From positions 4,984-68,983 of the forward strand of contig CAYZNV010000002.1 of assembly GCA_964480125.1 (NCBI GenBank): a stretch of 64,000 bases of DNA, given 5' to 3'. Each line of letters starts with the position of its first letter. Position 1 is the stretch's first letter. The notes under the pieces are model-generated. The model was not told the DNA's origin and ran no database searches. It saw only the letters and a list, made by a program, of their open reading frames with translations. Source of the DNA: an uncultured archaeon (lineage in GTDB: Archaea; Iainarchaeota; Iainarchaeia; Iainarchaeales; VGJJ01). The translations under genes were made by a program, and so were the position numbers. Of this stretch, positions 39,216 to 55,100 are shown in pieces.

Positions 39216-39680
39216 TTAGATCGTTCCGCGGCACTGAGCTGAGGCGGTCAAACCAGTTAGGTTTCCTGCGCTGTACGTCAAAGAGTATGTTAAGTTATAC
39301 GTACCCGAATTCAAATCGACTGCGGGGTCGACCGTGAAAGTAGCGGTTTCTCCTGCCGTCATCGAGGTAGGGGTTTCTGTTACTGCACCTGAAGTGTAGG
39401 TGCTAGCTCCACCGTGAGTTCCTGTCACGCTGAAGTCCATGGCGCTGACGCCTTGTCCGGTTTGGTTAACCAAAACCAATTGGGCGCTGCCAGCGGCGAT
39501 GTTGGACTGGGTAATAACGAAAGGACCCAGTTTGGAGTCGCACGTGTCTCCCTGAATGTTGCTTGGATTGATTAGAATGACCAACGCTGCAACTGCAATA
39601 ACAATAACGACCAAGGCCCAGCCATAAGTCATCAAGTATTCCAGCGCCGATTGGCCTCGAACACCAAATTTCATACGCAT
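39216..39680 (-). CDS. type IV pilin-like protein with class III (prepilin) signal peptide, candidate major pilin
   Basis: 'MRMKFGVRG|QSALEYLMTYGWALVVIVIAVAALVIL': basic N-terminus, RG cleavage motif, Q+1/E+5, then a hydrophobic helix. An AGGAGG SD lies 5 nt upstream. 154 aa. Confidence 0.7.
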   Translation of the reverse strand: MRMKFGVRGQSALEYLMTYGWALVVIVIAVAALVILINPSNIQGDTCDSKLGPFVITQSNIAAGSAQLVLVNQTGQGVSAMDFSVTGTHGGASTYTSGAVTETPTSMTAGETATFTVDPAVDLNSGTYNLTYSLTYSAGNLTGLTASAQCRGTI

Positions 39681-39812: not shown

Positions 39813-40511
39813 ATGCCAGCGATTACGACCATCGAACGCACCCCCACCGGAGTAAAGGGATTAGATGAATTGATTGAAGGGGGCGTGCCAAAAGGAGCGT
39901 TAGTCGCGTTGACCGGAGATCCGGGCGCGGGAAAGACTATTTTTTGCTTGCAATACCTTTACTCGGGAGCGATGCAGCACAATGATGTGGGAGTGTATCT
40001 TTCGCTGGAAGAAAAACCGGAAGAGCTCATTCAGACTGCCGCAGTATTTGGGTGGGATTACAATCCCCTCATCAAGTCAGGGAAAATTATCATGCAGACG
40101 ATTGAATTGTATGACTTTGATAAGTTACGCGACAGTATTGAAGACCTCGTGACGAAAAGCAAGGCCAAGCGCATGGTCATTGACCCCGGTGTCATTTTTC
40201 ATTTGTATTTTGAAAAAGAATTAGACGCCAGAAAGCGCATTCTTTCTTTGGGAAAGATGCTCAAGAAATTAGGCGTTACCACAGTCATCACCAATGAGAA
40301 TTCAACGCAACAAACGGGTTTGTTCGGCTTGGAAGAATATGTCGCAGATGGAGTCATCCTGTTGTATCACACCCGCATCGAGAACCGCTTCCAGCGCAGC
40401 GTGGGAATATTGAAGATGCGCGAGACAAAGATTTCCGACAAGCTACGACCGGTGCGCATCACGCAAGATGGGATGGAAATTTTGCCCAAAGAAGAATTAT
40501 TCAATGAATGA
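39813..40511 (+). CDS. KaiC/FlaH-like RecA-superfamily ATPase
   Basis: 'GVKGLDELIEGGVPKGALVALTGDPGAGKTIFCLQY' carries Walker A. 'MVIDPGV' is Walker B. 232 aa. Confidence 0.7.
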   Translation: MPAITTIERTPTGVKGLDELIEGGVPKGALVALTGDPGAGKTIFCLQYLYSGAMQHNDVGVYLSLEEKPEELIQTAAVFGWDYNPLIKSGKIIMQTIELYDFDKLRDSIEDLVTKSKAKRMVIDPGVIFHLYFEKELDARKRILSLGKMLKKLGVTTVITNENSTQQTGLFGLEEYVADGVILLYHTRIENRFQRSVGILKMRETKISDKLRPVRITQDGMEILPKEELFNE

Positions 40512-40570: not shown

Positions 40571-41593
40571 TTACTGATTCAATAGCAGGGGACCGAATGC
40601 CGCGTGCATGACGGCGCGTATCAGGAAAAATAATCCAAATGAAACGAGTAGCATGACGGGAAGATATTTCATTCCATCCTTTTCTTTTCCCGTAGCGATT
40701 GCGCCCAAAATAAGAGAAGCAAATACCCCTCCAACGAATAGCATGACTTGCGAAAAGAACACGATGAAATCAGGAGAGATGATACTGGCCTTTCCTCCCA
40801 CGAAACCACTTAATCCCGCAAATCGGCTCCCAGCAGAAGCGATAGCCCCAGGATCGACTGCGGGAGTGGCCCCTGTCTGCGCGGTCATCACTTCAACAAT
40901 GAAAGAGGACACCGCATAGAGTGCTGGCCCCCCGAACGCCGCAGAGAAGAAAATCAGAATGACATAAATGGAAATGGATGCGCTTGCCTCTGATTGTAAT
41001 GCCAGTTGCTTGCGCAGGTTATGCGAGAGCTGCATCAACAGATCCGCAATTTCTCCTCCAGAAGAAATTCCGCGTGCCAATAACCAAGTAGTACGCTCCA
41101 CAAGGGTTGACTTGAGATGTTTGGGAATCTCTAAAATCGCATGCTCCACGGGCGTGCCCGAATAGATTTTGGCCGAAACGCGTCGGAGTTCCGTTTCCAG
41201 TGGACCGAATTCGGGGCGTGCACTCATTAGCAGCGCGCGTTCCGTGGTGAGACCCGACTTGATGTTGCTCGCGATGAGTTGTAGCGCATCCGGAAGAATC
41301 GCTTCCACTTTCTTTCCGCGACCATCGGCAGAGAGATCCAATAACATGTACATGATCCCGATCATGCCGACGACCGTTCCGACTCCTGCGAGAATACTGA
41401 AGAGAATACCGAGATTGAAAGTGGTAATTCCCAAAAATATTGCAATGAGCCCAAGGACGAGGCTGAATATCAGGGTGTTCATCACATACTTGCGCGCTGA
41501 AATCTTCAATCCTAAATACATGAATTGTTTTTCGAATGCCGCGTAGATGCCGCGCAGGAATGGGAGTTCGATTCGGAATCCGGTCATGCGCAT
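40571..41593 (-). CDS. FlaJ/TadC-like polytopic membrane protein (T2SS-F domain)
   Basis: 340 aa with a TM pair, a cytoplasmic helical domain, then TMs again. It is operonic with the secretion ATPase. Confidence 0.6.
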   Translation of the reverse strand: MRMTGFRIELPFLRGIYAAFEKQFMYLGLKISARKYVMNTLIFSLVLGLIAIFLGITTFNLGILFSILAGVGTVVGMIGIMYMLLDLSADGRGKKVEAILPDALQLIASNIKSGLTTERALLMSARPEFGPLETELRRVSAKIYSGTPVEHAILEIPKHLKSTLVERTTWLLARGISSGGEIADLLMQLSHNLRKQLALQSEASASISIYVILIFFSAAFGGPALYAVSSFIVEVMTAQTGATPAVDPGAIASAGSRFAGLSGFVGGKASIISPDFIVFFSQVMLFVGGVFASLILGAIATGKEKDGMKYLPVMLLVSFGLFFLIRAVMHAAFGPLLLNQ

Positions 41594-42486
41594 CAGTCTC
41601 CCAGCAGAGAAGGGCGCTTGCTCTTCACGATTCCCATGTACATGAATTGGCCTATTCCCACAAAAGTGAGCAGAACCCAGAAATAGATATCCGTAATGGA
41701 AATCTGGGGGAATGAAGACAATACGATCAGGAACGTAATCCCGAGCGCTGGAACGATAACTCCTAACATCATGTACACGAGAGAAAGTATTTTCATCTGG
41801 CTCTCATAGTTTCGGATTTGGATGGATTGGGCATCCGTGAGCGAGTCCACGCTTTCAGAGAGGACTTGTGTGATATCTGCGCCGGCGCGCATTCCATTGA
41901 CGACTTGCCAGATGGTTCGGCGGAAATAGATGCTGGGATTGTTTTCCGCGATGCGTTCCAACGCTGCCTCTTGAATAGTTCCCGTATTGATTTGCTCTAC
42001 CGCCTTATGAAACTCTATCGAAACAGCCCCATAATTCCCCTCTGCTACCACTTTCATGGAATCGAAAAGACTGACACCTGAACGCAGTTGCACGAGCAGC
42101 GTGCGCAACGCAAACACGAGATTGCGATCCAAGTCGCGTACTTTCTTTTTGATTTGGATGATGGGGAATGCCACCAGTTGCACCATCACCAAAATACCAA
42201 AGACCCCACTGACCACTAGTGGAAGAATGGGATTGAGCGTCCCGAACACGCGGAAGCTGATCGTGTAGAACACCAAGAAGAAAAATACAAAATAGAATGC
42301 GATAATAACGAGGGACATCGTCGCATACTCTTTCGATGAAACTGGGATGTTGGCACGACGCATATCCGCATCCGAAACGGGAAAAACCTTCCCGAATTGC
42401 GCCCCCACTCCGATGAGTCGCTTGCTGGCCCAGCGCAGCATGGGCATGGGCAGCACATTGAGCGGCATGGAGAAGCGATAAATCAT
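41593..42486 (-). CDS. FlaJ/TadB-like polytopic membrane protein (T2SS-F domain)
   Basis: 297 aa with the same architecture. Its start overlaps the downstream gene by 1 nt. Confidence 0.55.
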   Translation of the reverse strand: MIYRFSMPLNVLPMPMLRWASKRLIGVGAQFGKVFPVSDADMRRANIPVSSKEYATMSLVIIAFYFVFFFLVFYTISFRVFGTLNPILPLVVSGVFGILVMVQLVAFPIIQIKKKVRDLDRNLVFALRTLLVQLRSGVSLFDSMKVVAEGNYGAVSIEFHKAVEQINTGTIQEAALERIAENNPSIYFRRTIWQVVNGMRAGADITQVLSESVDSLTDAQSIQIRNYESQMKILSLVYMMLGVIVPALGITFLIVLSSFPQISITDIYFWVLLTFVGIGQFMYMGIVKSKRPSLLGD

Positions 42487-42498
42487 CTTTTCACCGCC

Positions 42499-43989
42499 TC
42501 AACGAATCCCTGCTTTTTTGAAAATGGTCTCGGGATCCGAATAATATTGCGCGATGGCCTTCCCCACTTCGTTGATGTCACGGATTTTTTCGCGCATCAT
42601 GTATTCGAGCACGCGTTGTTTTTCCGCCAGATTCTGATTGATTTCTTGTGCCGTGTACCCGGTGTGCAGCGCCAATTCATCGAACAAACGAATACTTTCC
42701 GCGTATTTTTCGATTGTATCAGTTTGCGCACGCCAGCGGAATAAAATATTGGGTTTGAGCGTGGTCCCGCCTTGCGCGCCCGATTTCATGGGAACGAATT
42801 CTGCTAGCTGGAGAATTCTTCTCACCCCAAGTCGGCGATTGCGAAACATGACCGCATTCAAGTGCACCGCTTCCAATAGCGAGGGAGCGATTTCAATTGG
42901 AGGAGATGTCAAGCGCTGAATGGTTTCTTCCGCCGTGTTAGCGTGAACGGTAGCATAAACCGCGTGTCCGGTATGCATGGCTTCGAACATCACTTCGGCT
43001 TCTTTCTGCCTTCTTACTTCACCCACAATGATGCGGTCCGGGCGCATACGCAACGCATTCACGAGGAGATCCAGCATGGATATCTGTCCTTTGCCTTCTG
43101 CGTTTGGTTCGCGCGTGGTCATGGGAACCCAGTGCAAGAACTCTGGCAATTGCAGTTCGCGCGTGTCTTCGATTGTCAGCACGCGCTGGTTGGGTTGGAT
43201 GAAGGGCATCATCACATTCAGCAGCGTCGTCTTTCCGCTTCCTGTTCCCCCTGAGACCATGATGTTCAATTCGTATTCCATCGCCAACCAAATCAGCGAC
43301 ATTAGCTCTGCGCTCCCTGTCCCACCATTAATGAAATCCGTTACGGTCCATGGGTCGCGGCGAAAACGACGAATAGTAATCGTATTTCCGCGCGAAGAAA
43401 TGGGATGCAACGAAGCATTGGCACGATCCCCCGTAACGAGGTGGGCATCCAGCAGGGGATTCAGGATTGTGACTTGTTTTCCAACGCGACGCGCGATGAT
43501 GCTCGCATAGTTTTGGATCTCTGCTTCAGGGGAAATGAAGATGTTGCTTTTGAGCCAGCCATATTTCTTGTGGTACACCCACACAGGTTCTTCGGCGCTA
43601 TTGACTACAATTTCTTCGAGATTTCCATCATCCAGCATGAATTCGATGTAGCCTAATCCCACCATTTCGTGGATGATGACAGCAATCAGCTTGTCGCGTT
43701 GCTCTTTGGGAATCTCAGGGAGTTGTGTTTCCATGAGGCTTCGCGCCTTTGTGCGGAAATGACCTTTCATTTCTTCCACAAACTTTACATCCAGGAGTTT
43801 GTCCCCTGCCACATTCACGTCGGAGATGACTTTGCTCTTGAGGTTGTTGAGCATCGCCCGCGTTCCGGGACCGAACTCGGGAACGCGCAACATGTACCGC
43901 TTCACGAAGCCGGCTTCGTCATAGGTGATGTCCACTGCCACATCAATGTCGGACTTGATGGAATAGGACTCGATATTGCCTTGAAACAT
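42499..43989 (-). CDS. FlaI/TadA/VirB11-type secretion ATPase (type II/IV secretion system E family)
   Basis: 'MVSGGTGSGKTTLLNVMMPF' is Walker A. The Asp/His boxes and Walker B 'RIIVGEVR' are present. 496 aa. Confidence 0.85.
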   Translation of the reverse strand: MFQGNIESYSIKSDIDVAVDITYDEAGFVKRYMLRVPEFGPGTRAMLNNLKSKVISDVNVAGDKLLDVKFVEEMKGHFRTKARSLMETQLPEIPKEQRDKLIAVIIHEMVGLGYIEFMLDDGNLEEIVVNSAEEPVWVYHKKYGWLKSNIFISPEAEIQNYASIIARRVGKQVTILNPLLDAHLVTGDRANASLHPISSRGNTITIRRFRRDPWTVTDFINGGTGSAELMSLIWLAMEYELNIMVSGGTGSGKTTLLNVMMPFIQPNQRVLTIEDTRELQLPEFLHWVPMTTREPNAEGKGQISMLDLLVNALRMRPDRIIVGEVRRQKEAEVMFEAMHTGHAVYATVHANTAEETIQRLTSPPIEIAPSLLEAVHLNAVMFRNRRLGVRRILQLAEFVPMKSGAQGGTTLKPNILFRWRAQTDTIEKYAESIRLFDELALHTGYTAQEINQNLAEKQRVLEYMMREKIRDINEVGKAIAQYYSDPETIFKKAGIR

Positions 43990-44066: not shown

Positions 44067-44939
44067 TCACGAGGCGTTCTTGAAATAAATAATGGGTTCG
44101 CCGAACGCGGGATAGCGCACCTCGATCAGGCCATTATCTTCGAGCGTCTGCAGTTCTTCTGCGATTTTTTCTTCGTTCATCGCAAGGCGTTTCGTCAATT
44201 CATCCAGCTTAATGCTCTTCTGCAAGCGCACGATGTCTAGAATGCGATCAAAATTAGTGACAATGGCATTTGGAGAAGAAGGAATGGGAATCTCAACCCG
44301 TGCAGGGGTGGAAGTAGTAGCCACAACAGGAGAAGGTGTCGCAGTAGGAGGCCGCGCAGAAGGAGTTGGAAATTTTACTGGGGTTACGGGTGGTTTTGCA
44401 GGAGAAGCAGGTGCCGTATTGAGTGGCTTTATTACTGGCGCAGAGGGCTTTGACGCAGGCAGTGGAGCAGAAGGAAGGGGAGTAGAAGCATGTGGTGGAG
44501 CAGGCGATACAGCAGCCGAAGGTGATGGGTTCGATTTAATCCATGGAGCAGGAAAGGGCCACACTGCATTTGGAGAAGAGGAAGAAGTGGCACTTTTAGG
44601 CAGGGGCGAGCGCGCGGGAGTAATCGCAGGTGTTGTACGCGGGGAAGGTGGAGTGGAGATAATCGGCTCTGCGCGTGAGGGAGTAGGGGTAACAGCGGTT
44701 CGAGATAGTGGAATAGTTGAAGCCGGCATAACCGCTCGGCGCGCCTCGGGGATGACATAAGGCTTTCCGGCATAGGCGGGAGGAAGTGTGGGAGCGGGCT
44801 CTCCGTCGGAAAGTGACACGGGGCGTGGCGCGGGAGTAACAGGGGTCAACGTTGAAGGAGGAGTGTCAGGAAGCTGATGCAAGTGCAGAATGCGCGAGAG
44901 CGCACTGATGACGCCTGATTTGGGCTTTTCGGGGGACAT
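44067..44939 (-). CDS. Pro/Thr/Ala/Ser-rich low-complexity protein with C-terminal winged-helix domain
   Basis: About 200 aa of PT-rich linker, then 'ILDIVRLQKSIKLDELTKRLAMNEEKIAEELQTLEDNGLIEV'. Confidence 0.4.
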   Translation of the reverse strand: MSPEKPKSGVISALSRILHLHQLPDTPPSTLTPVTPAPRPVSLSDGEPAPTLPPAYAGKPYVIPEARRAVMPASTIPLSRTAVTPTPSRAEPIISTPPSPRTTPAITPARSPLPKSATSSSSPNAVWPFPAPWIKSNPSPSAAVSPAPPHASTPLPSAPLPASKPSAPVIKPLNTAPASPAKPPVTPVKFPTPSARPPTATPSPVVATTSTPARVEIPIPSSPNAIVTNFDRILDIVRLQKSIKLDELTKRLAMNEEKIAEELQTLEDNGLIEVRYPAFGEPIIYFKNAS

Positions 44940-44966: not shown

Positions 44967-46097
44967 TTAAGTCGCATTCCCTGCAACCTCGACTCCACGC
45001 GTGGGGTCGCTCAAATTGCCCGAAAAATCTTTTGCGCGCACAGTATAGAGGAGCGATTCTGCCGCAGAAGGTAAAACATACTGCGTGGCAGTCACTTCTG
45101 CAAGTATGGAGTAGGTAATGAATTGTTGTGAGCCAAAATTTTGGCGATAAATCACATACCCACTTACATCACCGGAAGAGCTCGCATCCCAGCGCAGGAC
45201 TGCAGAGTCATCCTCTTGTGTTACTCGCACATTAGTCGGAGGAGTTGGGGAAATATCATCGAACGCGATGGCCAACGGAAATGTTTGAGTGGTGGAACCA
45301 AGTAAGGTGTTTGGATTTCCTTCTGGAGTAATGGAATATAGTTTGGCACCAATGCGTGCAGAACGAATGGGGAGTACAACCGTTGCTTGTGTGGTGTAAC
45401 TCGCAGAAGGAGCAACAGAATCCAAGCGCACTTGTTGGGGCACTGAAGCTAGTAGATTTTCGGCATTGTCATATACATCCACGTACACCAAAAATAAACC
45501 ATCTGCCGCAACTGAGGAATTATTTTGTAATGGAATGCTGACTTGTGCCGTGCTCCCTTGGATTACAGAAGCGAGTATTCCGATGTTGAATTGCAATGCA
45601 GAAGAAACACACTGCGTGGATGCACATATTTTTCCGGATGGACACCCACAAGCAGTGCAATTATCCACCAACTTCCCATTCACGCACTGTTGTGGTGGAA
45701 GCGAACACGCGCCATCTTTCGTTCCGTCGAGGCATCGAATCAGCGTATCCGTGACGGCAATCCCACGAGTGAATGCATAGTCATTCACGCGCAAAGATAG
45801 GGGGTGGACCCCTGGACGAGAAAAGACGTGCGTAAAAATCAATTGACATGGATTGGTTGAACAAGGCTGTGTAAGAGTGGCGTCATCGATTGCCAGCGCA
45901 ACGGTTGTTCCTTGGCCATTTGATATGGTAATGGAAACGGAAATCTCATCCCCTACACGTGCAGCAGAAGGCGTTTGCCACTCCACTTGCGGGATTGAAA
46001 TGCTTTGTTGTGTGGGCTGTTGCGTATAGAGGTAATACCCACCCACAAAAAGAGCAACAAGCCCGATTGCCAAGAAAAGTGTTTCGCTTGCATTCAT
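44967..46097 (-). CDS. membrane-anchored secreted protein with Cys-rich module and C-terminal FN3-like domain
   Basis: N-terminal TM. 'CLDGTKDGACSLPPQQCVNGKLVDNCTACGCPSGKICASTQC'. 'PTPPTNVRVTQEDDSAVLRWDASSSGDVSGYVIYRQ' is FN3-like. Confidence 0.45.
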   Translation of the reverse strand: MNASETLFLAIGLVALFVGGYYLYTQQPTQQSISIPQVEWQTPSAARVGDEISVSITISNGQGTTVALAIDDATLTQPCSTNPCQLIFTHVFSRPGVHPLSLRVNDYAFTRGIAVTDTLIRCLDGTKDGACSLPPQQCVNGKLVDNCTACGCPSGKICASTQCVSSALQFNIGILASVIQGSTAQVSIPLQNNSSVAADGLFLVYVDVYDNAENLLASVPQQVRLDSVAPSASYTTQATVVLPIRSARIGAKLYSITPEGNPNTLLGSTTQTFPLAIAFDDISPTPPTNVRVTQEDDSAVLRWDASSSGDVSGYVIYRQNFGSQQFITYSILAEVTATQYVLPSAAESLLYTVRAKDFSGNLSDPTRGVEVAGNAT

Positions 46098-47083
46098 TGG
46101 GGAAACACCACCACATTGCTTTTGTACGTGTCGAATCCGGGCTTAATGATGGAATAATTGGCGTCCTGATAATAGAAAGAAGTGATTGCCCGGCGGAAAA
46201 CGACCTCGAGAGTGACATGGATTGGATTTCCACCATGTTCGAAATAAATTCCATTGTTCAGCGTGATTGTGAATGGAGAAGAGTTGCACGGCGGACTGCT
46301 ACAAGAATAAGTCAATGTATTCGTGTCACTCGGAAGAAAGTAAACGCCAGGATTTTTTTCGTTCGTGGTTAAAGAACAATTCACGCAATTGGCGTCATCG
46401 AAGTGCAATGAGAAAAAGGGATAATTGGAATCGGGAGCATACGTGTCAAAGGGGCACATGTTGCCATTGAAGTCGCAGGTCAAAACATTATAATCATCCG
46501 TCGTCCCGAGCAAGGACACATTGACATCGATGCGTTCAATGCTTGAGATGAGATCGAAAGACGATGAGCAGCCTAGCGTGGAAGAGTTGGAGAGCGAGAA
46601 AGTATTGTCATCGAGCAATTGGTATTGCACGCACGAAGGGAGTAGGTTGAATTTGGCAGTGGAATGAGTTCCACCCCACGCACTGGATTGAGGGACGTTC
46701 AGGTCGATGAGTACTCCATCATAAGTATGTTGGGTATTGTTGTCGGTGGCGAAAATGCGATAAGCATTGAGGATATCGAAATACAGTCCAAGTTTTCCGG
46801 ATGCAAGAGGAAGCCGTTGCGTTGTGCGCAACACATTTCGATCCACCGCATATTGGAATGGCAAGATTCGCTGAGCGATAGAGGGAATTCCTATCCCTGT
46901 GTCCAAGGAAATGATGTCATCCGTCACGTCATCATACTTGGAATTGATGCTGTTCAGCACGCTGACTTCAATCGTAGTCTCGGATTGTTTTTCTTGTGTC
47001 TGGAGGTGGAACGCAATCGCGGTGATGACTACTCCCACGAACAAGAAGGTAAGGAAAGTAAATAATATCCCTTTCTCACGCAT
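46094..47083 (-). CDS. prepilin-leader protein (class III signal 'MREKG|ILFTFLTFLFVGVVITAIAF')
   Basis: Start taken at Met24 so that it does not overlap the upstream stop at 47089. About 329 aa of extracellular domain. Confidence 0.45.
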   Translation of the reverse strand: MREKGILFTFLTFLFVGVVITAIAFHLQTQEKQSETTIEVSVLNSINSKYDDVTDDIISLDTGIGIPSIAQRILPFQYAVDRNVLRTTQRLPLASGKLGLYFDILNAYRIFATDNNTQHTYDGVLIDLNVPQSSAWGGTHSTAKFNLLPSCVQYQLLDDNTFSLSNSSTLGCSSSFDLISSIERIDVNVSLLGTTDDYNVLTCDFNGNMCPFDTYAPDSNYPFFSLHFDDANCVNCSLTTNEKNPGVYFLPSDTNTLTYSCSSPPCNSSPFTITLNNGIYFEHGGNPIHVTLEVVFRRAITSFYYQDANYSIIKPGFDTYKSNVVVFPQ

Positions 47084-47088
47084 GCCCA

Positions 47089-50000
47089 TCATCCTCGGAT
47101 CCATGCCCAGTAATCGAGCGTGAAAAACTGGGTCTGTGGGCGCGAATAGCAATAGATGAAATCCTGATTGTTGTTGCTACATTCGGGGATGGTTCCGCTT
47201 GGATTCACCACGGCAAACAAATCCCCTTCAGCTGGGACATTCTGCACAAACGTATAGCTAGAGGCTAAGCACCCTGGAGATTGTGAACCACACAAGAAAG
47301 GAATGGATTGCGACCCCACCAGCGTCGAGGGAGAAGGATTGCCGCGATAGAATTCCACGTTGGTATTGTTCGTGTCCAGCGTGCCGTGGCTGACGACCTT
47401 AACGGTGAGATCCACATTGTTAGTGCTTATTAGATTGCCAGACTGGATGTCCACATTCAAGTCGCGGTAATTGAATGCAGTGGTGATGAATTCATTCCAG
47501 TCCTTGGTTTGAGGATTACCATTCGAGTCCAGGTATTGGAATTGAGTAGTGCTCCCAGGAACGGATAACAACGTTGAGCTGCATGCTAGTGCCGTCGTGC
47601 AGGGGATGTTGAACGTATAGCTTGATACCCATGGCTGCGGTGCCAGCGTGTTGATGTCGAAGATAATCCCATTCCCCACTAATACCCCGTTTCCATCATC
47701 CACGATGACCGTTCCGCTGTTGAAACTGGTATAGATGTTTGCATCTTGCGCAATCACTTGAATAGTTTGCGCAATCAGCTGGTAAACCGCGCTTAAAGCG
47801 TTCTGATCAGCCGCATAATAATATTGTCCCCCCGTGAGATTTGCGATGTTCGTCAGCTCTGTCGCATCCGCGTCTTCACCGAAACCAATGGTGTAGATGA
47901 TAATCCCATTATTGCTGGCAGTGATGGCAGCAGTAGAGGAGTTTGCTCCCATGTTGGTGAGGCCATCTCCCATTAGAATCTGGAACTTGAGCGCGGAAGG
48001 ATTTGAATATCCCCCGTATGTGATGAAGCGCGCATCCCATCCTGATTGCGCAGTCGTGTTCTGGTATGCCTGTCCATTAGAATAGGGATTGCTCGAGCTT
48101 GCACCCCATTGATAGTAGTTCGAAGCATTGTCCGTTGCCGTGGTCGCAGCAAGATAGTATGTCACTCCTGGACTGACAGCCGTCGTACCAAAATTGGCCG
48201 TGACCAGCGCGTACGTAGTTCCAACCGAAGAAGAAGGAATAGATACGCTGGAGATTGGACTCCCAGAAATGCTCGAGCGCAATTCGAGGACAAGCGGGGA
48301 GGCAGGATTTCCCACTCTCCGGATATAGACATCCGCGCGCGTGAAATAGGGAAGGACCGGTTGATAGGATTGCACGGCGGATTGATTGCTTGAGTTCTGT
48401 CCGATGTAGAGGCTCTGGTTTTGGCTTCCAGAATTGCTAACATCCGTTTGGGACATACTGAAATGCGTCGTGGCTGTATTGATTCCTTCCCCGACAGCCG
48501 TCCCCCCGCTAGCAACAAGATTGCTTACGGATGTCTTCACGGAAGAATAGGTTCGGGTAAGGGATTGATTCAGTGTAGCGCTACTCGAAAAACTAACTAA
48601 CCCTAATTGGTCGTTCGAACTATTCCACCCATTGAAATCGATGAAAGTATTTGCGGATAACTTGGCTTGGTTCAGTTTGGGGCCCACTCGCAGATCGATT
48701 GTGATGAGGCCCGGAATTCCTGAGTCGACGGCGATGTAGGCCCAGTCCCCTTGCACCTCGAGATCGCGATAACTGTAGGGAGTAGCAAAACTATCCACTA
48801 GCACAGGAGATGCTGGAGATGAAATGTTTACGACTTGTAATGAGCTGTCATCTGCAATGATCGCATTGGTGTCCTTGAGACGCACCGTGTAAGCTGTGCC
48901 GGGAGTATTGTATGTTCCCACTAGCGTAGGAGAGGCAGGATTTGAAATATCCACCACTCTCATTCCTTGCGAACCATTTCCGACATACGCGTAACTCCCT
49001 GAAGGCCAGACATCATAGGTGGTGCCACTCGCGATATTACATCCTCCAGTATTGTAGCAATTTGCAACGACGCTGGGTTGCTGGGGATTGGCAATATTGA
49101 ATATGCGAAATCCATTTGTGCCATTTGCCGCATAAGCATAATCTCCTTGCAGGGTGACGTGATAGGGATCTTCTAGCGGAGACGCCCCAATCACACGCGG
49201 AGATGATTTGGTGCTCGTATCCACCACGACTAATCCCGCAACATACTGCGTGCGCAGATACGCATCCCATGTTTGGGATGTAGTATTTTGGTAGGCTTGC
49301 CCTCCAGAATAGGGGTTGCTGCCGCGGGCCTTCCACTCATAATAGTTGGAGTTGCTGTTTGAAGGAGTGGTGAGCACGATGAAATAAGTAGTGCCGCTCG
49401 TGAGCGGAATGACTCCTGAAAAATTCACGTCTACGTAGGCTCCGCTGGAAGATGTTCCAACGGAAGAAGCGGGAATTGTGATTGTATTCAAGTCGCTTCC
49501 AGAAATACTCGTGCGCAAGTGCGCCGTGATGTCTGGAGGACTCCCAATTTTACGCAGGCGCACTCCAAAGCCCGTAATGAAATCCACTCCAGGAGTGAAT
49601 GACTGCCCTCCACTCGCTTGGGAAGAGGTTCGACCGATGTAGATGTTTTGATTTGGACTCCCATTCGTGGTCGTTTCGACATCTTGGGAAGAAGAAGAAA
49701 ACGTCGTGACATACGTGATCGTGTCCCGGCTCGTCACACCATAAGCAGTCCCTCCCACATCGAGTTGCGCAGCAGAAGAGGGTGATGATTTTGTGGTCAC
49801 ATTCACGATGCGCAATCCTGAACTTCCGTCCGCGAGATAGGCATAATTGCCATTTACGTCCACATCGTTTGCCGTCCCGGGAGAATTATAAGTTCCAACT
49901 AGCAGTGGCAGTCCCGGACTATCGATGTTGACATCGCGCAGTCCTGAAGTTGAATCGGCCAAAAATGCATAGTTCTGATCCACTTCCACTCCTAAAGCCG

Positions 50001-50724
50001 ACGTCGAATTCAGTTGCCCGCCCCAACTCATGCTTCCGGAGCGATCGAAAACCAACATCATGTCGACTGGTCGTCGTGTTCCCGAGTTCGTTGTGACGGT
50101 GAGAGAGACGGTGATGTTCTGATCGCACGTCAAAGGACCAGCTGGAAAAATATTCACATCAAAATTGATGTTGGCATCCTCTGCGAAGGCAAGACTTGGG
50201 GTGTAAGGTGAATAGATTCCACTCTTGCGCGGGGAAAGCCCTCCCGTGCATTGCGAGGAAGGTTGTTGCTTGAGGAAAATCCTCCTCCCATGAACGAATG
50301 GAGCAGAGGACGGAAGCGTCGTTCCATAGGTCAATGCCGTGCGATTGGCATCGGGAAAACAAGTGGTAAAGTCTTGCGCGGATTGGCAGGAGTTCACATC
50401 AACAGGATAGCTGGTAAGTTCCACATACAAATCATATTGAGGCGGGAGAAGCGTGCGAATATAGGAATAGATGTTTTGCAATGTTGCGGAAGAAAAACCA
50501 TTGATGTCGATTTCACTCGAAACAAATCCGGAGTGATCCATAGCAAGAAAAATATCATCGACATATTGATCGGCAACGCGTCTTTCTTCCAAGAAAGAAG
50601 TGGGTTGGTTCGGCAAAGAAATGAGTAGCGCAACAGATGAAACAAGGATTAGAGCCAATACCACATCGGCACTGAAGGCAAAACCCCTCGGAGGAGTAGG
50701 AGATAATGAGTAGTCATGCAACAT
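47089..50724 (-). CDS. giant prepilin-leader adhesin with two vWA-like modules and LVIVD beta-propeller repeats
   Basis: N-terminus '...TPPRG|FAFSADVVLALILVSSVALLI'. 'MMLVFDRSGSMSWGG' is a vWA MIDAS DxSxS motif. The repeats 'GNYAYLADGSSGLRIVNV' and 'YAYVGNGSQGMRVVDISNP' are LVIVD-like. A second vWA-like region carries 'GGTAVGEGINTA'. 1211 aa. Confidence 0.6.
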   Translation of the reverse strand: MLHDYSLSPTPPRGFAFSADVVLALILVSSVALLISLPNQPTSFLEERRVADQYVDDIFLAMDHSGFVSSEIDINGFSSATLQNIYSYIRTLLPPQYDLYVELTSYPVDVNSCQSAQDFTTCFPDANRTALTYGTTLPSSAPFVHGRRIFLKQQPSSQCTGGLSPRKSGIYSPYTPSLAFAEDANINFDVNIFPAGPLTCDQNITVSLTVTTNSGTRRPVDMMLVFDRSGSMSWGGQLNSTSALGVEVDQNYAFLADSTSGLRDVNIDSPGLPLLVGTYNSPGTANDVDVNGNYAYLADGSSGLRIVNVTTKSSPSSAAQLDVGGTAYGVTSRDTITYVTTFSSSSQDVETTTNGSPNQNIYIGRTSSQASGGQSFTPGVDFITGFGVRLRKIGSPPDITAHLRTSISGSDLNTITIPASSVGTSSSGAYVDVNFSGVIPLTSGTTYFIVLTTPSNSNSNYYEWKARGSNPYSGGQAYQNTTSQTWDAYLRTQYVAGLVVVDTSTKSSPRVIGASPLEDPYHVTLQGDYAYAANGTNGFRIFNIANPQQPSVVANCYNTGGCNIASGTTYDVWPSGSYAYVGNGSQGMRVVDISNPASPTLVGTYNTPGTAYTVRLKDTNAIIADDSSLQVVNISSPASPVLVDSFATPYSYRDLEVQGDWAYIAVDSGIPGLITIDLRVGPKLNQAKLSANTFIDFNGWNSSNDQLGLVSFSSSATLNQSLTRTYSSVKTSVSNLVASGGTAVGEGINTATTHFSMSQTDVSNSGSQNQSLYIGQNSSNQSAVQSYQPVLPYFTRADVYIRRVGNPASPLVLELRSSISGSPISSVSIPSSSVGTTYALVTANFGTTAVSPGVTYYLAATTATDNASNYYQWGASSSNPYSNGQAYQNTTAQSGWDARFITYGGYSNPSALKFQILMGDGLTNMGANSSTAAITASNNGIIIYTIGFGEDADATELTNIANLTGGQYYYAADQNALSAVYQLIAQTIQVIAQDANIYTSFNSGTVIVDDGNGVLVGNGIIFDINTLAPQPWVSSYTFNIPCTTALACSSTLLSVPGSTTQFQYLDSNGNPQTKDWNEFITTAFNYRDLNVDIQSGNLISTNNVDLTVKVVSHGTLDTNNTNVEFYRGNPSPSTLVGSQSIPFLCGSQSPGCLASSYTFVQNVPAEGDLFAVVNPSGTIPECSNNNQDFIYCYSRPQTQFFTLDYWAWIRG

Positions 50725-51244
50725 ACAAGGTCACGGTCACGGTTGTCTCAATTCCATTCACGGTCACAAAACGTCGTACGACGCTCGATTGCACGGATCC
50801 GATAGGCATCAACCCCATCGAGAGATTCGCTCCACCAGTGAATTCGATGTAATAGTTAAAATGACTGAGCCGTAATTTCTCGCGCACGAGGTAATAGTCG
50901 GTATTTCCCAGGTTGACGAATGCCACGACTTTGTCAGGGTCCAGTACACGATCCCGAATCGCCAAGCCAAAGAATTGCACAGCGTTGTAGTCGGAGAGAG
51001 ATTCCCAGTCAACAGGGGAACCGGGATTTTTCACGAGATATTCAGCCACATTGGCGGCAGTAGTGTCAAGTGTTTTGCGTTCGAATTGTCGTTCGGTCGC
51101 ACCCTCAATCGAGCCTTGGAAATAAAATATGCCGGCAATGATGATCATGAATAATGTAACCGCAAACATCACATCTGGAATCGCCGCTTGAGCACGCGAA
51201 GAGCGGAGCGCATAGCAAGGTGAGAAGTCGGAACGCATGTGCAT
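50714..51244 (-). CDS. prepilin-leader-like small protein ('SRA|QAAIPDVMFAVTLFMIIIAGIF')
   Basis: 176 aa with an RAQ motif followed by a hydrophobic helix. It is operonic (11-nt overlap). Confidence 0.4.
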   Translation of the reverse strand: MHMRSDFSPCYALRSSRAQAAIPDVMFAVTLFMIIIAGIFYFQGSIEGATERQFERKTLDTTAANVAEYLVKNPGSPVDWESLSDYNAVQFFGLAIRDRVLDPDKVVAFVNLGNTDYYLVREKLRLSHFNYYIEFTGGANLSMGLMPIGSVQSSVVRRFVTVNGIETTVTVTLYVA

Positions 51245-52414
51245 TCACCCAAACACCCGCTGCGCCACCACATTTCCAATGGGGTTCACAAGGGTTGCGG
51301 TGACCGTTCCGCCTGACCAGAGCGTGCTCGGAGAATTCAAGTAGATACGCGTGGTCGTATTGGTTCCCGTCCCCGTATGCACGCGCGCAGATCCATCCAA
51401 GATAAACGGATCAGGAAAAGTGATGAGTGGAATCCCATCCCTCAAGAGCGAAAAACCAGATAACTCCAACGACTGCAACGCAGTGAATTCGAGGAACTCA
51501 TTTTGGATATTGCGTTCATCGAATTCAGTCTCGGTAATCACAATCAGGGGTTGCCCAAACGCATCGAATCCTGGATTCACATACCCACAGTCAGCGCTGA
51601 AATAAAGGGGAAGAATTTCATACGCACATCCCTCGTCCGTGCAAAAGTAATTTTGCCATATTTTTGTCGTGGAAGAGCAAGTGTAACTGTCGGCAGGACA
51701 TTGTGCGATTACGCAGGCATTCCCACTGCCAGAACCCCCGACGGAGAGTTCGTTGTCAGAAAGTATTTCTTCTTGAGTGGACTGTGAAGAAAAAGCACTT
51801 GACTCGTTCTGCCAGAGGCGAGAGAAGAGGGATTTGAATAATTCTCGTTCAGTCTCGGTGCGGAGCACGCGGAGACTGGCAGTTCCCTGGGCATTTGTGT
51901 CGGTATTATTTCCAACGAGCTCCGACGTTGCGTCTACGTGCACAAAATTCGTGGCCACAAAATTATTCACGGATTTCACTCGAACGGTCGCGCCTTCAAG
52001 GAAAAACTTAGGATTAAGCGAAGCATCGAGGATGAGCTCCACCTTCACCCCTCGCTTGATGGCCGCGCGCAAGTGGTCGCGAAATATTTTGGGGGCAGGA
52101 GTCCGGAGCACGGCCTGGATTCGTTGCGTAGCAGAATCGATGTGAGTGAGCACCTTTTCGAGACAGTCGGCTTGGGCACAATCGTACGTGACCGCACACT
52201 GCGTCAACGCAATGGATCGCGCCTGATCAGGAGGAATAGTATTTACTTCATTCACTGGCTCTGGGGACGCGACATTCGGCACGATTACCGGAGCGGGTGG
52301 AGGAGAGGGAAATACGATGATAAGTGCAATGGCTAATAGAATCAAGACGAACGGTCCCAGCAACCATTGGAACTGAAATCGTATGGGTGGATTGAGGGAA
52401 TCAGATGAAGGCAT
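51245..52414 (-). CDS. membrane-anchored secreted protein (N-terminal TM), Cys-containing
   Basis: 389 aa with a hydrophobic N-terminus 'WLLGPFVLILLAIALIIVF'. The leader is less canonical. It is operonic (1-nt overlap). Confidence 0.35.
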   Translation of the reverse strand: MPSSDSLNPPIRFQFQWLLGPFVLILLAIALIIVFPSPPPAPVIVPNVASPEPVNEVNTIPPDQARSIALTQCAVTYDCAQADCLEKVLTHIDSATQRIQAVLRTPAPKIFRDHLRAAIKRGVKVELILDASLNPKFFLEGATVRVKSVNNFVATNFVHVDATSELVGNNTDTNAQGTASLRVLRTETERELFKSLFSRLWQNESSAFSSQSTQEEILSDNELSVGGSGSGNACVIAQCPADSYTCSSTTKIWQNYFCTDEGCAYEILPLYFSADCGYVNPGFDAFGQPLIVITETEFDERNIQNEFLEFTALQSLELSGFSLLRDGIPLITFPDPFILDGSARVHTGTGTNTTTRIYLNSPSTLWSGGTVTATLVNPIGNVVAQRVFG

Positions 52415-54000
52415 CAGGTCACCACCAAATTGATGTTGTCGATATAAATCCCCACTCCCTCATTGGAAAGATCCCAGTCCGATAGCGCCCCACCAAATTC
52501 CAGGTAATAACTTCCGCTGCCGCTGACGAGGGAAGCGATATCTTGAATAAAGAATTGAGTTGTATCCGTTGGAGTGTCGGAGAACCATATTTCGGGAGAT
52601 GCATCCCCATCATCATCACTCGCGTCTTGGGCAGATCCAAGGAAGGTCATCCCGCCATTATTGCCGAAGCGCGCTTTTACCCAAACCTCTTCTCCAGCAT
52701 CTGCCGCATTACCCCATCCTGCATCCGCATCGATAGAGTACGCGAAGCTCAATAGCAATTGTTCTCCCCCCTGTATGCGCGACCACATCGTGGAATTGAT
52801 GTCCACTTGGATCCCATACGCACCAGATGCGGCCGCGCCGACAAATGCATTGTCATCCGGCAGCGCCCCAGCAGAAGGCGCTCCTCCACCCATGCGAAGT
52901 TGCAGTTGCTGGTTGAGTGGAACATTCGAATCGGAAATGCTCCCATTGCCATTGGGATCCACGTTGAATTGGACGGCTTCCGAAAATGTCCCACCATACG
53001 TCCCCGCGGACCAATCCCATCCATCGTTTCCGGCATCAGCTCCGAAGGTATTAGCAATGCTATTGACATCCGATCGGAAATCGAGTGGTTGGGGCAAGTC
53101 TGCTCGCATTTCCCACAAGTCCACCGTCTGGCCAATAGAAAGGAAGTTCACATCCAATCGACCATAGTCAATCGAGATAAATGAACCTGAACCATTGGGC
53201 TCATACGTCATGCGAATGCGCGCATTGTTGGCGAGATTGTAATCCGTGATGCAACTTGAGAGGTTGGGACTTTGATAAAGTGCTTCCGTGTAGCTGGGAA
53301 CATAAGCCTCGATGTCCAACCAGGTTGTTCCATTCCAACACTGAATGCGGCGCAAGTTTTCGGATAACCCGATGAGGTTGCCTTGCAGGTGTTTGATGAA
53401 GACACTCACATTCGTAATGGTATTAGCCGGAGTCAGACCCAGATTTGAGAACCGAAACTCCACCCAGTCCGGGTCCACCAGTTGATCGTCCGCGGAGTTT
53501 GCGTAAGAGACATCATCCGCCTGCACCTCGGTAGACCATATTTGGCCCTGATCGTCCGTTAGCAGAACAATGCCAGCAGTAACATTCGAATTGGATGCAG
53601 GAACTTGAATGGGGGGATTGAGAGGAGAATAATTCAAATCATTCGTGAAAATGATGAGCCCATTCACGTCAAAGGCTTTTATGATTCCCCGCGACAAGGA
53701 AACATTCGCCACATTCCCCAAGAAAGGACAAATGCGATCGCCCACAAAAATAACCCCAGAAACGATGTTAGTATCATATTCCAATTCCAAGCGCGTTTCC
53801 GTGTAGGGAGGATTTGAGCTCATGTAGGTGATGATTGAAGAGAGCTTGGTACAAATCCCTTCTTCTTGGAGGTTTCCCTGCAGCGCACGATTGGATACGC
53901 TGCGCGTATGGATAAGGAGGAGCACCACGACAAAGACTAATAACAAAATAAGGATGCTCAGAAGGATTTCAGTCGCCACTTGGGCACGCGTTGCATTCAT
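52414..54000 (-). CDS. large prepilin-leader protein ('MNATRA|QVATEILLSILILLLVFVVVLL', E+5)
   Basis: 528 aa. Class III-like leader with Q+1/E+5, followed by a large beta-rich extracellular domain. Confidence 0.45.
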   Translation of the reverse strand: MNATRAQVATEILLSILILLLVFVVVLLLIHTRSVSNRALQGNLQEEGICTKLSSIITYMSSNPPYTETRLELEYDTNIVSGVIFVGDRICPFLGNVANVSLSRGIIKAFDVNGLIIFTNDLNYSPLNPPIQVPASNSNVTAGIVLLTDDQGQIWSTEVQADDVSYANSADDQLVDPDWVEFRFSNLGLTPANTITNVSVFIKHLQGNLIGLSENLRRIQCWNGTTWLDIEAYVPSYTEALYQSPNLSSCITDYNLANNARIRMTYEPNGSGSFISIDYGRLDVNFLSIGQTVDLWEMRADLPQPLDFRSDVNSIANTFGADAGNDGWDWSAGTYGGTFSEAVQFNVDPNGNGSISDSNVPLNQQLQLRMGGGAPSAGALPDDNAFVGAAASGAYGIQVDINSTMWSRIQGGEQLLLSFAYSIDADAGWGNAADAGEEVWVKARFGNNGGMTFLGSAQDASDDDGDASPEIWFSDTPTDTTQFFIQDIASLVSGSGSYYLEFGGALSDWDLSNEGVGIYIDNINLVVT

Positions 54001-54404
54001 GTGTTGGTCACGCTTGCATTGGTATCTGTCATGCTCACCTGCAAACGATAAAATCCCTCTTCGAAGTACAATTGCTGCGGCGTCACTCGCGCGCGAGTAA
54101 ATGCAAATACCGAGGTGCTCCCCCCAACAGGTGGGAGAAAAGTCATCAGCACATAATTCTGATCCACCAAGAAAGTGGTCACGGAAGAAGGCAGTTTGAC
54201 ATCAATGAGCACGGTATTTCCTGGACCTTTAGCATACACGAAATCCACTGCATTTGCTACTTGATCGACAACGGATTGTCCTTGGGTGACTTGAATCGTC
54301 GTCGAATAGGAGATGAAAGAGTACGCAAAAAGAATCACTGCCACTCCCATCAGAAAAGCCGTGAAGACAATATACTCGAATGCCACTTGGCCGCGCGGAT
54401 GCAT
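53997..54404 (-). CDS. pilin-like protein with class III signal ('MHPRG|QVAFEYIVFTAFLMGVAVIL')
   Basis: Start at Met25 of the track ORF. A TATA 'ctttttatt' (revcomp of 54428-54436) lies about 27 bp upstream. First gene of the operon. Confidence 0.5.
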   Translation of the reverse strand: MHPRGQVAFEYIVFTAFLMGVAVILFAYSFISYSTTIQVTQGQSVVDQVANAVDFVYAKGPGNTVLIDVKLPSSVTTFLVDQNYVLMTFLPPVGGSTSVFAFTRARVTPQQLYFEEGFYRLQVSMTDTNASVTNT

Positions 54405-54518
54405 GTGATGCAAGCAGCAAAACCGCCAATAAAAAGCAAGCACGCAAAAGAAGTGAAATCGCCCCCAATCCCCCATCCAGCCGCATTAAATAGCCCCTTG
54501 CTTATGTATATTCATTAG

Positions 54519-55100
54519 ATGGTGGCAGAAGGAAAGCTCAAGCTATATCGCGTTCTCTTAGAGAAATACGGCGAAATAATTAATGAGAAAGAACAACGCA
54601 CCGTGGGACAGATCAAAGCCCTCATTGATGTCGAGGATCTCAACATCCAGAATCTCATTACACTCTACAAGCCCGAACCCTACCTCTATGAAAAAGATTA
54701 TCTGGACACCGTGCAGAAAATTTACGAATTCATCACGAAAGAAATCCAGTATGTGCCTAACGACCTTAACCTCAATTTTTGGCTTTCACCAAAAGAAATA
54801 CTCAAGAACAAAATCTCAGACGATGAAGATCTTTCCGTACTGCTATGCTCCGCCATGGCCGCGCTCGGAGACAATAACGCATTTGTTTATTTGATGGAAC
54901 TCGAAGACGGAAGCACACACGCAGTGGTGTTGAGCACGATCAACAACGTAACGCTACTACTAGACCCTTGCCTACAGCATGGTTTCTTCAAATACTATGG
55001 AGAAAAAGCATACGTGTTCAAGAAATACCAATTCAACGGGAAGAAAATCAAACGCGCCATCTACCGATTCAATGCCCAAGTGTATGAGCAGTTCGTATAG
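54519..55100 (+). CDS. transglutaminase-like cysteine-peptidase-fold protein (tentative)
   Basis: 'LLCSAMAALGDNNAFVYLMELEDGSTHAVVLSTINNVTLLLDP' shows a Cys...His...Asp order like transglutaminase-like cores. Confidence 0.3.
   Translation: MVAEGKLKLYRVLLEKYGEIINEKEQRTVGQIKALIDVEDLNIQNLITLYKPEPYLYEKDYLDTVQKIYEFITKEIQYVPNDLNLNFWLSPKEILKNKISDDEDLSVLLCSAMAALGDNNAFVYLMELEDGSTHAVVLSTINNVTLLLDPCLQHGFFKYYGEKAYVFKKYQFNGKKIKRAIYRFNAQVYEQFV

Follow-up and report, generated by a model that had tools for sequence, protein, structure and literature searches.

A candidate pilus-associated adhesin of an Iainarchaeota archaeon carries a split von Willebrand factor A domain within a minor-pilin-like scaffold

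The subject of this report is a 1211-residue protein encoded in a 64,000-nucleotide stretch of DNA from an uncultured archaeon of the Iainarchaeota (GenBank assembly GCA_964480125.1, contig CAYZNV010000002.1, positions 4,984 to 68,983). The whole stretch is called the window below, and all coordinates refer to it. The open reading frame (ORF) runs from ATG to stop on the minus strand at 47089..50724, with its stop codon at 47089-47091, and the plus strand of the same interval is riddled with stops and holds no ORF. A first-pass annotation, made from the letters alone, had given exactly this interval and length, and the strand can now be added. The protein contains a single von Willebrand factor A (vWA) domain, which is interrupted by two large inserts and is itself inserted in a minor-pilin-like scaffold, and its gene is a member of a type IV pilus operon.

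Domain organization of the gene product

The window encodes a CDP-archaeol synthase, confirming that the DNA is archaeal, and the relatives of the 1211-residue protein come from Iainarchaeum metagenome-assembled genomes (MAGs). Public data contain an identical protein (P0001) and 44 homologues with the same VWA and LVIVD make-up; the named ones belong to Micrarchaeota archaea or to Candidatus Diapherotrites/Iainarchaeum and are entered as 'VWA domain-containing protein'. The family is present in more than 70 genomes of Iainarchaeota and Micrarchaeota, both DPANN archaea, and the nearest species-level genome is the complete Candidatus Iainarchaeum chromosome CP064981.1 (85% identity). With 20 N-x-S/T sequons, six close cysteine pairs, 30% serine, threonine and asparagine and a low charge, all features that suit an extracellular protein, the composition of the protein differs from that of the cytoplasmic proteins encoded at the locus.

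The Pfam VWA profile (PF00092) matched the native protein with an E-value of 1.6e-11 (45.1 bits against a cut-off of 23.8). The matched regions are scattered along the chain: positions 20-93 of the VWA_2 profile correspond to residues 683-759, positions 101-171 of VWA correspond to residues 909-980, and the DRSGS motif is found at residues 227-231, far upstream of the other matches. When residues 216-238, 680-757 and 908-992 were spliced together, positions 1-171 of the 174 in Pfam VWA were matched in one stretch (E 5.7e-20, 72.7 bits). Because the three pieces cover successive parts of one profile, the protein holds one vWA domain split into three pieces, not the two vWA modules that had been counted at first. 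The MIDAS-like DRSGSMS stretch, which the first-pass annotation had also pointed out, is genuine: residues D227, S229, S231, T742 and D920 of the MIDAS (metal-ion-dependent adhesion site) are all invariant in a 45-sequence alignment, and the site, as judged from its residues, is intact. Conservation is highest in the vWA segments, with 70-81% identity in segment 1, and in the C-terminal strand.

An AlphaFold2 model of the mature protein, computed with 45 sequences (mean predicted local distance difference test score, pLDDT, 85.5; predicted template modelling score 0.62), places the elements in the order β1, insert, α1, β2, β3, α2, α3, insert, β4, α4, β5, α5, β6, α6, which is the alternating β/α, Rossmann-like succession of a classical vWA domain. 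A search of PDB sequences with the protein returned weak generic vWA matches only. The other large relatives all carry a vWA domain and their Pfam match begins at profile position 15-35; therefore, every one of them is split at the same point.

The first insert (residues 239-677) directly follows the DxSxS loop and consists of a β-propeller that is itself interrupted. The LVIVD profile (PF08309) matched in five stretches, or six when the interrupting module A was removed, with an E-value of 8.6e-37 and 124.7 bits (cut-off 20.2), and seven four-stranded blades with pLDDT above 90 are seen in the model. The LVIVD repeats noted earlier are thus confirmed, and the vWA and LVIVD calls, for which the first-pass annotation had suggested a profile check, both score above their thresholds. 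With the full model as query, Foldseek found generic β-propellers only, the best being DDB1, Tako8 and Fbw7.

Module A, of about 150 residues within propeller blade 3, and module B, which forms the second vWA insert, are 45% identical (E 2e-42) in a targeted comparison; self-BLAST of the whole protein missed this duplication. Neither copy occurs in homologues of about 905-939 residues, module A alone occurs in those of about 1056 residues, and both occur in 7 of the 45 homologues, to which module B is confined. The two copies of the present protein have no Pfam match at E<=5. Since 14 of 24 homologous modules match DUF4082 (PF13313; best E 1e-8), and since this family is precomputed for P0006, P0026 and P0041, modules A and B appear by sequence to be divergent DUF4082-like β modules. 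Between the vWA domain and the C-terminal strand lies an all-β region that, in the model, probably forms two β-sandwiches. Cysteine pairs 1042/1048, 1145/1152 and 1182/1192 are assigned to it. A PKD domain, another suggestion of the first-pass annotation, was not found in the protein; only a weak CARDB-like match (E 0.0088) was obtained in this region, and the CARDB match is stronger in the relative P0089.

The nesting is unusually deep, with a DUF4082-like module in a propeller, the propeller in a vWA domain and the vWA domain in a pilin-like scaffold. In other large relatives the inserts are LVIVD propellers, one to three Laminin_G_3 domains (ConA-like lectin), a sialidase N-terminal lectin domain or DUF5074. 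Such swapping of modules at the same insertion site across lineages suggests that the site tunes ligand specificity. The coordinates of these features, and of the genes around them, are collected in the table.

Table. Features of the 1211-residue protein and genes of the surrounding pilus locus. Arrows (↓) mark putative prepilin-peptidase cuts.
Feature	Position	Strand	Basis or remark
Whole ORF, 1211 residues + stop (gene 5)	47089..50724	-	RG↓FAFSAD; identical public protein P0001; same-architecture homologues
Leader peptide, residues 1-14 (MLHDYSLSPTPPRG), putative cut after G14	50683..50724	-	Leader conservation; putative cleavage
Minor-pilin-like N-module, residues 15-170	50215..50682	-	Profile hidden Markov model of stand-alone relatives; N-module profile; AlphaFold2 secondary structure
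β linker region, residues 171-219, leading into vWA	50068..50214	-	AlphaFold2 strands, family conservation
vWA segment 1, residues 220-238: β1 and MIDAS D227-x-S229-x-S231	50011..50067	-	Most conserved stretch
LVIVD propeller, N-terminal part, residues 239-344, blades 1-3	49693..50010	-	Pfam LVIVD, AlphaFold2, Foldseek
DUF4082-like β module A (putative), residues 345-497, within propeller blade 3	49234..49692	-	Likeness to module B
LVIVD propeller, C-terminal part, residues 498-677, blades 3-7	48694..49233	-	Pfam LVIVD, AlphaFold2, Foldseek
vWA segment 2, residues 678-757: α1 to α3, MIDAS T742	48454..48693	-	VWA_2 profile positions 20-93
DUF4082-like β module B (putative), residues 758-905, within vWA before β4	48010..48453	-	Likeness to module A
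vWA segment 3, residues 906-992: β4 with MIDAS D920, through α6	47749..48009	-	VWA profile positions 101-171
C-terminal all-β region, residues 993-1190	47155..47748	-	AlphaFold2 secondary structure, weak CARDB
Conserved C-terminal strand, residues 1191-1211 (..CYSRPQTQFFTLDYWAWIRG)	47092..47154	-	Stand-alone relatives, splice test
Gene 1: 159-residue pilin-like protein (..PRG↓QVAFEYIVF)	53997..54476	-	
Gene 2: 528-residue pilin-like protein (..TRA↓QVATEILL)	52414..54000	-	
Gene 3: 389-residue N-terminally anchored protein	51245..52414	-	Weak TrmB C-terminal/PLD-like match
Gene 4: 176-residue pilin-like protein (..SRA↓QAAIPDVMF)	50714..51244	-	D at +6
Gene 6: pilin-like protein of about 331 residues (MGMREKG↓ILFTFL)	46094..47089	-	No acidic residue
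Gene 7: 376-residue N-terminally anchored, Cys-rich protein	44967..46097	-	PKD/FN3-like regions
Gene 8: 290-residue Pro/Ser/Thr-rich protein	44067..44939	-	C-terminal winged helix-turn-helix-like region
Gene 9: FlaI/TadA-like assembly ATPase	42499..43989	-	Pfam T2SSE, E 8e-39
Genes 10-11: split FlaJ/UpsF-type platform protein	40571..42486	-	Pfam T2SSF in both halves
KaiC-like ATPase gene	39813-40511	+	Adjoins 154-residue pilin
Putative major pilin, 154 residues (..VRG↓QSALEYLMTYGWALVVIVIAV)	39216..39680	-	Adjoins operon and KaiC-like ATPase gene

The minor-pilin-like scaffold and its leader

The N-module begins with the hydrophobic helix α1 (F15..L37, with D20 at position +6), followed by further helices and a small β-sheet; cysteine pairs 113/122 and 159/200 belong to this part of the chain, and the linker behind it has modelled strands at mature positions 172-179 and 189-198. 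When modelled in isolation (pLDDT 75.5), the N-module shows a long N-terminal helix with a proline-rich kink, two more helices and a small sheet. Among 1.84 billion cluster representatives, a profile covering roughly the first 205 mature residues matched 186 proteins of about 135 to 2207 residues, the match always beginning within the first few dozen residues. The size of the protein, which had been called unusual, is therefore not exceptional for a family that spans 135 to about 2200 residues. At the lower end stand relatives of 135-173 residues that consist of the N-module and a strand with the pattern ..Y.(V/I).(D/E)YW.W, located 1-4 residues from the end. All these stand-alone proteins are annotated 'hypothetical' and are without a Pfam domain, and only sub-threshold matches to DUF7288 were obtained with them. 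No paper on DUF7287, DUF7288 or DUF7289 was found among open-access papers and bioRxiv.

A profile hidden Markov model (HMM) built from 19 stand-alone proteins matched the 1211-residue protein at residues 12-156 (HMM positions 7-138, E 3.4e-27). A second, colinear match of the same model (HMM positions 139-152) falls on residues 1196-1209, close to the end of the protein, which reads ..FFTLDYWAWIRG (motif ..FFTLDYWAW), and is too short to be significant alone. A splice test therefore served as a control, in which the N-terminal part was fused to each 18-residue window of the same protein and every fusion was rescored with the stand-alone HMM. The true C-terminus ranked first of 1033 windows, with 102.5 bits against a mean of 91.7 (standard deviation 1.2). 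Among eight diverse family members, the true C-terminus came first in six and ranked 8 of 1062 and 4 of 949 in the remaining two. The strand motif also terminates 71 of 99 larger relatives, and its residue W1208 is invariant in the 45-sequence alignment. Because the stand-alone HMM is colinear with the protein, because the splice test ranks the C-terminus first and because 71 of 99 relatives share this end, the cargo of about 1030 residues is, by sequence comparison, inserted between the N-module and the C-terminal strand and is not a C-terminal appendage. By the same comparison, homology links the C-terminal strand to the strand in which the stand-alone minor-pilin-like proteins end. A minimal loaded form exists in P0225 (332 residues), where an intact vWA domain (E 1.2e-23) stands between N-module and terminal strand.

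At the N-terminus the sequence is MLHDYSLSPTPPRG↓FAFSADVVLALILVSSVALLISL, as the first-pass annotation had it, with R13 at -2, G14 at -1 and then a hydrophobic stretch (F15..L37) of about 20 residues. Archaeal prepilin peptidases recognize a basic residue at -2, G or A at -1 and the residue at +1 (PMC3387779, PMC4371748), and an acidic residue at +5 is optional in archaeal prepilins according to the same reviews. With its basic -2 residue, its G/A at -1 and its adjoining hydrophobic stretch near the N-terminus, the leader has the features of the archaeal class III type. The consensus of the family is [KR][GA]↓FxF[ST]x[DE], and a hydrophobic helix comes next. Across 42 full-length homologues, position -1 is G or A in all and -2 is K or R in 35; F stands at +1 in 40 and at +3 in 41, and both +6 (D or E) and +10 (A) are without exception. 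This conservation at -2, -1, +1, +3 and +6 indicates that the motif is under selection and not a product of chance, and the pilin-like leader proposed in the first-pass annotation is borne out by it. In addition, the leader can be aligned without a shift to the [KR][GA]↓Q leaders encoded by neighbouring genes; in an hhalign comparison of the stand-alone profile with the 176-residue and 331-residue neighbours, only leader and helix were aligned, in register. Prepilin peptidase would be expected to cleave after G14.

The pilus operon and the proposed role of the protein

The gene is the fifth of eleven tightly packed minus-strand genes, and their overlapping start and stop codons indicate a single operon. 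Gene 4, whose product has a sub-threshold match to DUF7287, overlaps the start of the gene by 11 nt, and the ATG of gene 6 overlaps its stop codon (ATGA); this start was placed from homologues, and the ORF listing has a TTG at 47152. The assembly ATPase of gene 9 matched NCBIfam FlaI with an E-value of 2.7e-86, under the curated cut-off. The N-terminal half of the platform protein (41593-42486) corresponds to UpsF positions 34-237 and the C-terminal half (40571-41593) to positions 257-423. The protein thus shares its locus with genes for pilus assembly (ATPase and platform protein) and for other pilins. Gene order is kept in more than 50 of 73 species-level loci, down to 30% identity; these loci come mostly from Iainarchaeum MAGs and include the complete AR10 genome. 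The link to pili, which the first-pass annotation had drawn from the protein alone, is supported by this context. A scan with models of bacterial promoters and terminators, which are uninformative for an archaeon, gave promoter-like counts at chance level.

By architecture, the closest known proteins are TadG and CpaL of the bacterial Tad (type IVc) pili, such as Caulobacter CpaL and Aggregatibacter TadG. CpaL has a leader, a pilin-like module and one vWA domain with a full MIDAS, split after DxSxS by two β-rich domains; it is modelled at the tip of the Tad pilus with CpaJ and CpaK and acts in surface sensing (PMC12607857). The archaeal protein repeats this plan: a short leader and a pilin-like N-module are followed by one vWA domain, β-rich inserts split that domain right after the DxSxS segment, the full D-x-S/T-x-S/T...T...D MIDAS is present, and the extreme C-terminus carries a strand that, on sequence evidence, belongs to the N-terminal pilin-like domain and would pair with it. 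Both are also encoded with two or more small minor pilins. The differences are that the protein is archaeal with a leader of archaeal type (K/R at -2), that it is twice as large as CpaL (about 600 residues), that its insert is a seven-bladed LVIVD propeller with a DUF4082-like module instead of two small β-barrels, and that a second vWA insertion and a β-sandwich stalk are added. The Pfam families of TadE and TadG are not among its Pfam matches at E<=1. Because of this, and because the locus is archaeal, we have not filed it as a TadG/CpaL protein.

Other known systems resemble parts of the design. In the PilK/GspK family of minor pilins, the tip complex is licensed to assemble by the last β-strand of the sheet, which is supplied in trans from the C-terminus of PilC/PilY1 and in cis by GspK and CpaL/TadG (bioRxiv 10.64898/2026.02.14.705861); archaeal systems lay outside that analysis. 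Like GspK/PilK, the present protein is the largest minor pilin of its set, has an extra domain inserted within the pilin module and would complete its sheet with its last β-strand; in contrast, the insert of GspK is an α-domain and no adhesin. PilY1 shares a vWA domain and a β-propeller and is located at the pilus tip, but it is not a pilin, it provides its strand in trans, and it has a C-terminal propeller from another family, whereas here adhesin and scaffold form one chain with the propeller inside the vWA domain. Membership in PilC/PilY1 was rejected, as the protein has no Pfam domain of that family, an internal LVIVD propeller and a pilin-like N-terminus. Streptococcus sanguinis PilB likewise has a pilin module behind a class III signal, together with a vWA domain whose MIDAS, flanked by 'arms', is functional in adhesion; its vWA domain is appended to the C-terminal end of the pilin by a short linker, whereas the archaeal cargo is inserted and the chain returns to the scaffold. 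A survey of modular pilins used the bacterial signature IPR012902, and its largest cited example has 860 residues. The analogues that had first been named, Tad-associated vWA proteins and PilY1, were therefore in the right neighbourhood, with TadG/CpaL the closest.

The locus as a whole resembles the archaeal Clade 1/System 1 (Epd-type) pili. System 1 pili have a split platform protein, at least five minor pilins and large predicted adhesins (PMC4858521). In common with them, the locus has one ATPase, two platform genes, at least five minor pilins with class III signals, a large predicted adhesin, a KaiC-like ATPase and leaders of the type [KR][GA]↓Q..E (Q at +1, E at +5). In contrast, the predicted adhesins of Clade 1/System 1 carry DUF2341, galactose-binding or Ig-like domains, and the major pilin of the present locus has 154 residues with a globular C-terminal part, compared with about 70 residues in the Epd pilin. 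It has been proposed that Tad pili derive from an archaeal Epd-like system (PMC12607857; 2026 archaeal type IV filament preprint), which is the type of the present locus. In Makarova et al. 2016, vWA domains of archaeal pili appear only in cytoplasmic regulators (ArnB with MoxR), and vWA is unmentioned in the 2026 survey preprint. No description of the protein family was found in open-access papers and bioRxiv.

The domain identities, the intact MIDAS, the homologous scaffold, the topology of insertion and the place in the operon are established above, and we consider it rather likely that the protein is a pilus-associated adhesin with a pilin-like anchor. We lean with similar confidence to its serving as the large adhesive subunit in an archaeal type IV pilus of the Epd/'System 1' kind, in a DPANN archaeon of the Iainarchaeota. 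Since the protein repeats the CpaL plan part for part, we propose for it both a cap or starter role and an adhesive tip: it is probably the sticky tip subunit of the pilus and, by analogy, would probably also license assembly in the manner of TadG/CpaL or GspK. The adhesin guess of the first-pass annotation was thus reasonable and gains from the operon membership; its picture of a cargo hung on the C-terminus of a pilin has to be replaced by a cargo inserted in the scaffold. A possible course of events is as follows. The N-terminal hydrophobic helix, which is present and conserved, would insert the protein into the membrane, and an archaeal prepilin peptidase would then cut after G14. By analogy with GspK, TadG and CpaL, the N-module, completed by the protein's own last β-strand, may join the four other pilin-like proteins that the operon encodes. 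The resulting complex would start the fibre and end at its tip, with the ATPase and the split platform polymerising the major pilin underneath. The cargo, about 1030 residues looped out of the scaffold and comprising the vWA domain with its MIDAS, the LVIVD propeller, the two DUF4082-like modules and the β-sandwich stalk, would be displayed at the tip, where the MIDAS face and the adjacent lectin-like modules may bind a ligand on a surface or host cell.

Several results weigh against this proposal, and some of them speak for a rival reading, in which the protein is a cell-surface adhesin or envelope protein that is encoded with the pilus genes, keeps its N-terminus as an uncleaved signal anchor and stands outside the fibre, perhaps at the pilus base. 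Neither a pilin fold nor a pilin HMM was recovered for the N-module: Foldseek with its model against the PDB gave no pilin or pseudopilin match (best E 1.6), Pfam gave no match with the N-terminal region alone, and the Pfam and NCBIfam models of pilins and class III signals did not match the protein. Pairing of the C-terminal strand with the sheet of the N-module is based on homology. The residue at +1 is F, compared with Q in the other pilins of the locus. PibD-type enzymes tolerate more residues at +1. Gln at +1 is required by the Methanococcus EppA peptidase (PMC4371748), and the protein might escape cleavage if the local peptidase were EppA-like. No prepilin peptidase gene is found in the window, and the only one near any family member is a Peptidase_A24 gene (E 1.5e-13, 272 residues) in a related locus (L024, 4282-5097, plus strand), about 5 kb upstream of the family vWA gene, with none in the other 76 loci. 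An older view cited by Makarova et al. also holds that TadG anchors the pilus to the membrane. However, the invariant G/A at -1 and the near-invariant K/R at -2 are not expected of a plain signal anchor, and the invariant acidic residue at +6 within the hydrophobic helix recurs in the 176-residue pilin-like neighbour. Furthermore, stand-alone forms of 135-170 residues have no cargo to anchor, and the conserved terminal strand parallels GspK and CpaL. We therefore regard an uncleaved signal anchor as unlikely.

In a second rival reading, the main task of the protein is structural or regulatory, such as priming and licensing of pilus assembly or tension sensing as in PilY1/CpaL, and the vWA and propeller domains would bind other parts of the machinery or the envelope, not an external ligand. 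It was reported that the middle of CpaL (about 470 residues, vWA included) is partly dispensable for piliation and that its C-terminal strand is required (bioRxiv 10.64898/2026.02.14.705861), and CpaL functions in surface sensing (PMC12607857); moreover, the vWA core and the C-terminal strand are the best conserved parts here. The differing lectin-like modules beside the MIDAS nevertheless fit diversifying recognition of ligands better than a fixed partner, and in Saccharibacteria bona fide pilins bear both of these domain types (see below). A mainly structural or regulatory role seems to us distinctly unlikely, and such a role is in any case compatible with adhesion. Finally, the protein could be an unrelated vWA membrane protein, of BatA/BatB type or an S-layer component, whose position in a pilus locus is functionally meaningless. 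Its best NCBIfam matches are indeed BatA-type vWA models (E 2.7e-9), but these scores are far under the cut-offs (36.5 bits against a curated 380 for NF047508, so that this assignment was rejected) and cover the generic vWA core only. Synteny with pilus genes, which persists in more than 50 genomes at identities as low as 30%, and a coding region that overlaps both neighbouring pilin-like genes, bring this last explanation close to refutation, and we hold it to be most improbable. Preferably, then, the protein is read as a pilus-associated adhesin.

Cultivated DPANN archaea grow attached to other cells. The family provides a concrete conserved candidate for the point of contact with the partner, combining a metal-dependent adhesion site with exchangeable lectin-like modules. 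For the field of type IV filaments it adds an archaeal version of the design known from CpaL/TadG and GspK, and it is relevant to the proposal that Tad pili arose from archaea. Whether the DPANN family is a true homologue, and not a mere analogue, of bacterial TadG/CpaL is doubtful at present, although conceivable. If that were true, a self-complementing tip minor pilin with a split vWA domain would already have existed in the Epd-like archaeal ancestor of Tad pili, terminal-strand licensing would be ancestral to the type IV filaments of both domains of life, and the MIDAS-adjacent loop would be a cassette site in ultra-small DPANN archaea, where propellers and lectins are swapped to retarget the tip. 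The family also contains a natural series, from the scaffold (about 135 residues) through scaffold plus vWA (332 residues) to propeller and lectin-like forms of 900-2200 residues. It mirrors the engineered 'delta-middle' construct of CpaL and makes ancestral strand licensing testable.

Further observations at this and related loci

The 154-residue putative major pilin has the leader RG↓QSALEYLMTYGWALVVIV. Its N-terminus (RGQSALEYLMTYGWALVVIV) is nearly invariant in distant loci and its C-terminal part is weakly Ig-like. Its gene is always paired with that of a KaiC-like ATPase; KaiC-family ATPases have been proposed as pilus regulators (Makarova et al.). The 528-residue and 389-residue genes are found in closer relatives only, and distant loci have one pilin-like gene of about 120 residues instead. 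In the product of gene 8, about 220 residues rich in Pro, Ser, Thr and Ala precede a winged-helix-like region with weak MarR/HTH matches. This gene is kept in most related loci, and a DNA-binding-like domain is unexpected in an operon for pilus structure.

A simpler operon is present in a Micrarchaeota locus (L070, 7997-12395), where a stand-alone 134-residue scaffold (MKG↓FAISLD...TWLRKEQ) occupies the slot of the large gene. A separate 747-residue protein with a Q leader (SKA↓QTSFEFLL) is encoded there, and its vWA domain is also split after DRSGSMS. In a MAG of the Saccharibacteria, which belong to the candidate phyla radiation (CPR), two adjacent modular pilins of bacterial type with canonical G↓xxxxE leaders are encoded (L074, 9500-12054). 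One has 481 residues (..KKSG↓YAVIEILLA) with an LVIVD propeller and the other 369 residues (..KKG↓TTLIEVIL) with a vWA domain; local identity to the archaeal protein is 30% for the propeller and 47% for vWA segment 2. Next comes a canonical pilin (RKG↓FTLMELLIV). Therefore, both radiations of ultra-small episymbionts present LVIVD and vWA domains on pili, and the adhesin toolkit may be shared or exchanged between CPR bacteria and DPANN archaea.

Elsewhere in the window, three minus-strand genes (33316-35277, 35343-36437 and 36536-37189) encode N-terminally anchored or secreted proteins; one product, of 653 residues, has YtkA-like and filamin-like Ig domains and the other two are without a Pfam match. 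In another giant ORF, of 1279 residues (59070-62909, plus strand), the N-terminus resembles a lipobox (..LLLLIVAGC) and the C-terminal part includes a hydrophobic segment; it may encode an S-layer or surface protein. Divergent from the pilus operon, a transglutaminase-like/CEP76-peptidase-like gene without a signal sequence (54519-55100, plus strand) keeps that position in roughly 40 related loci.

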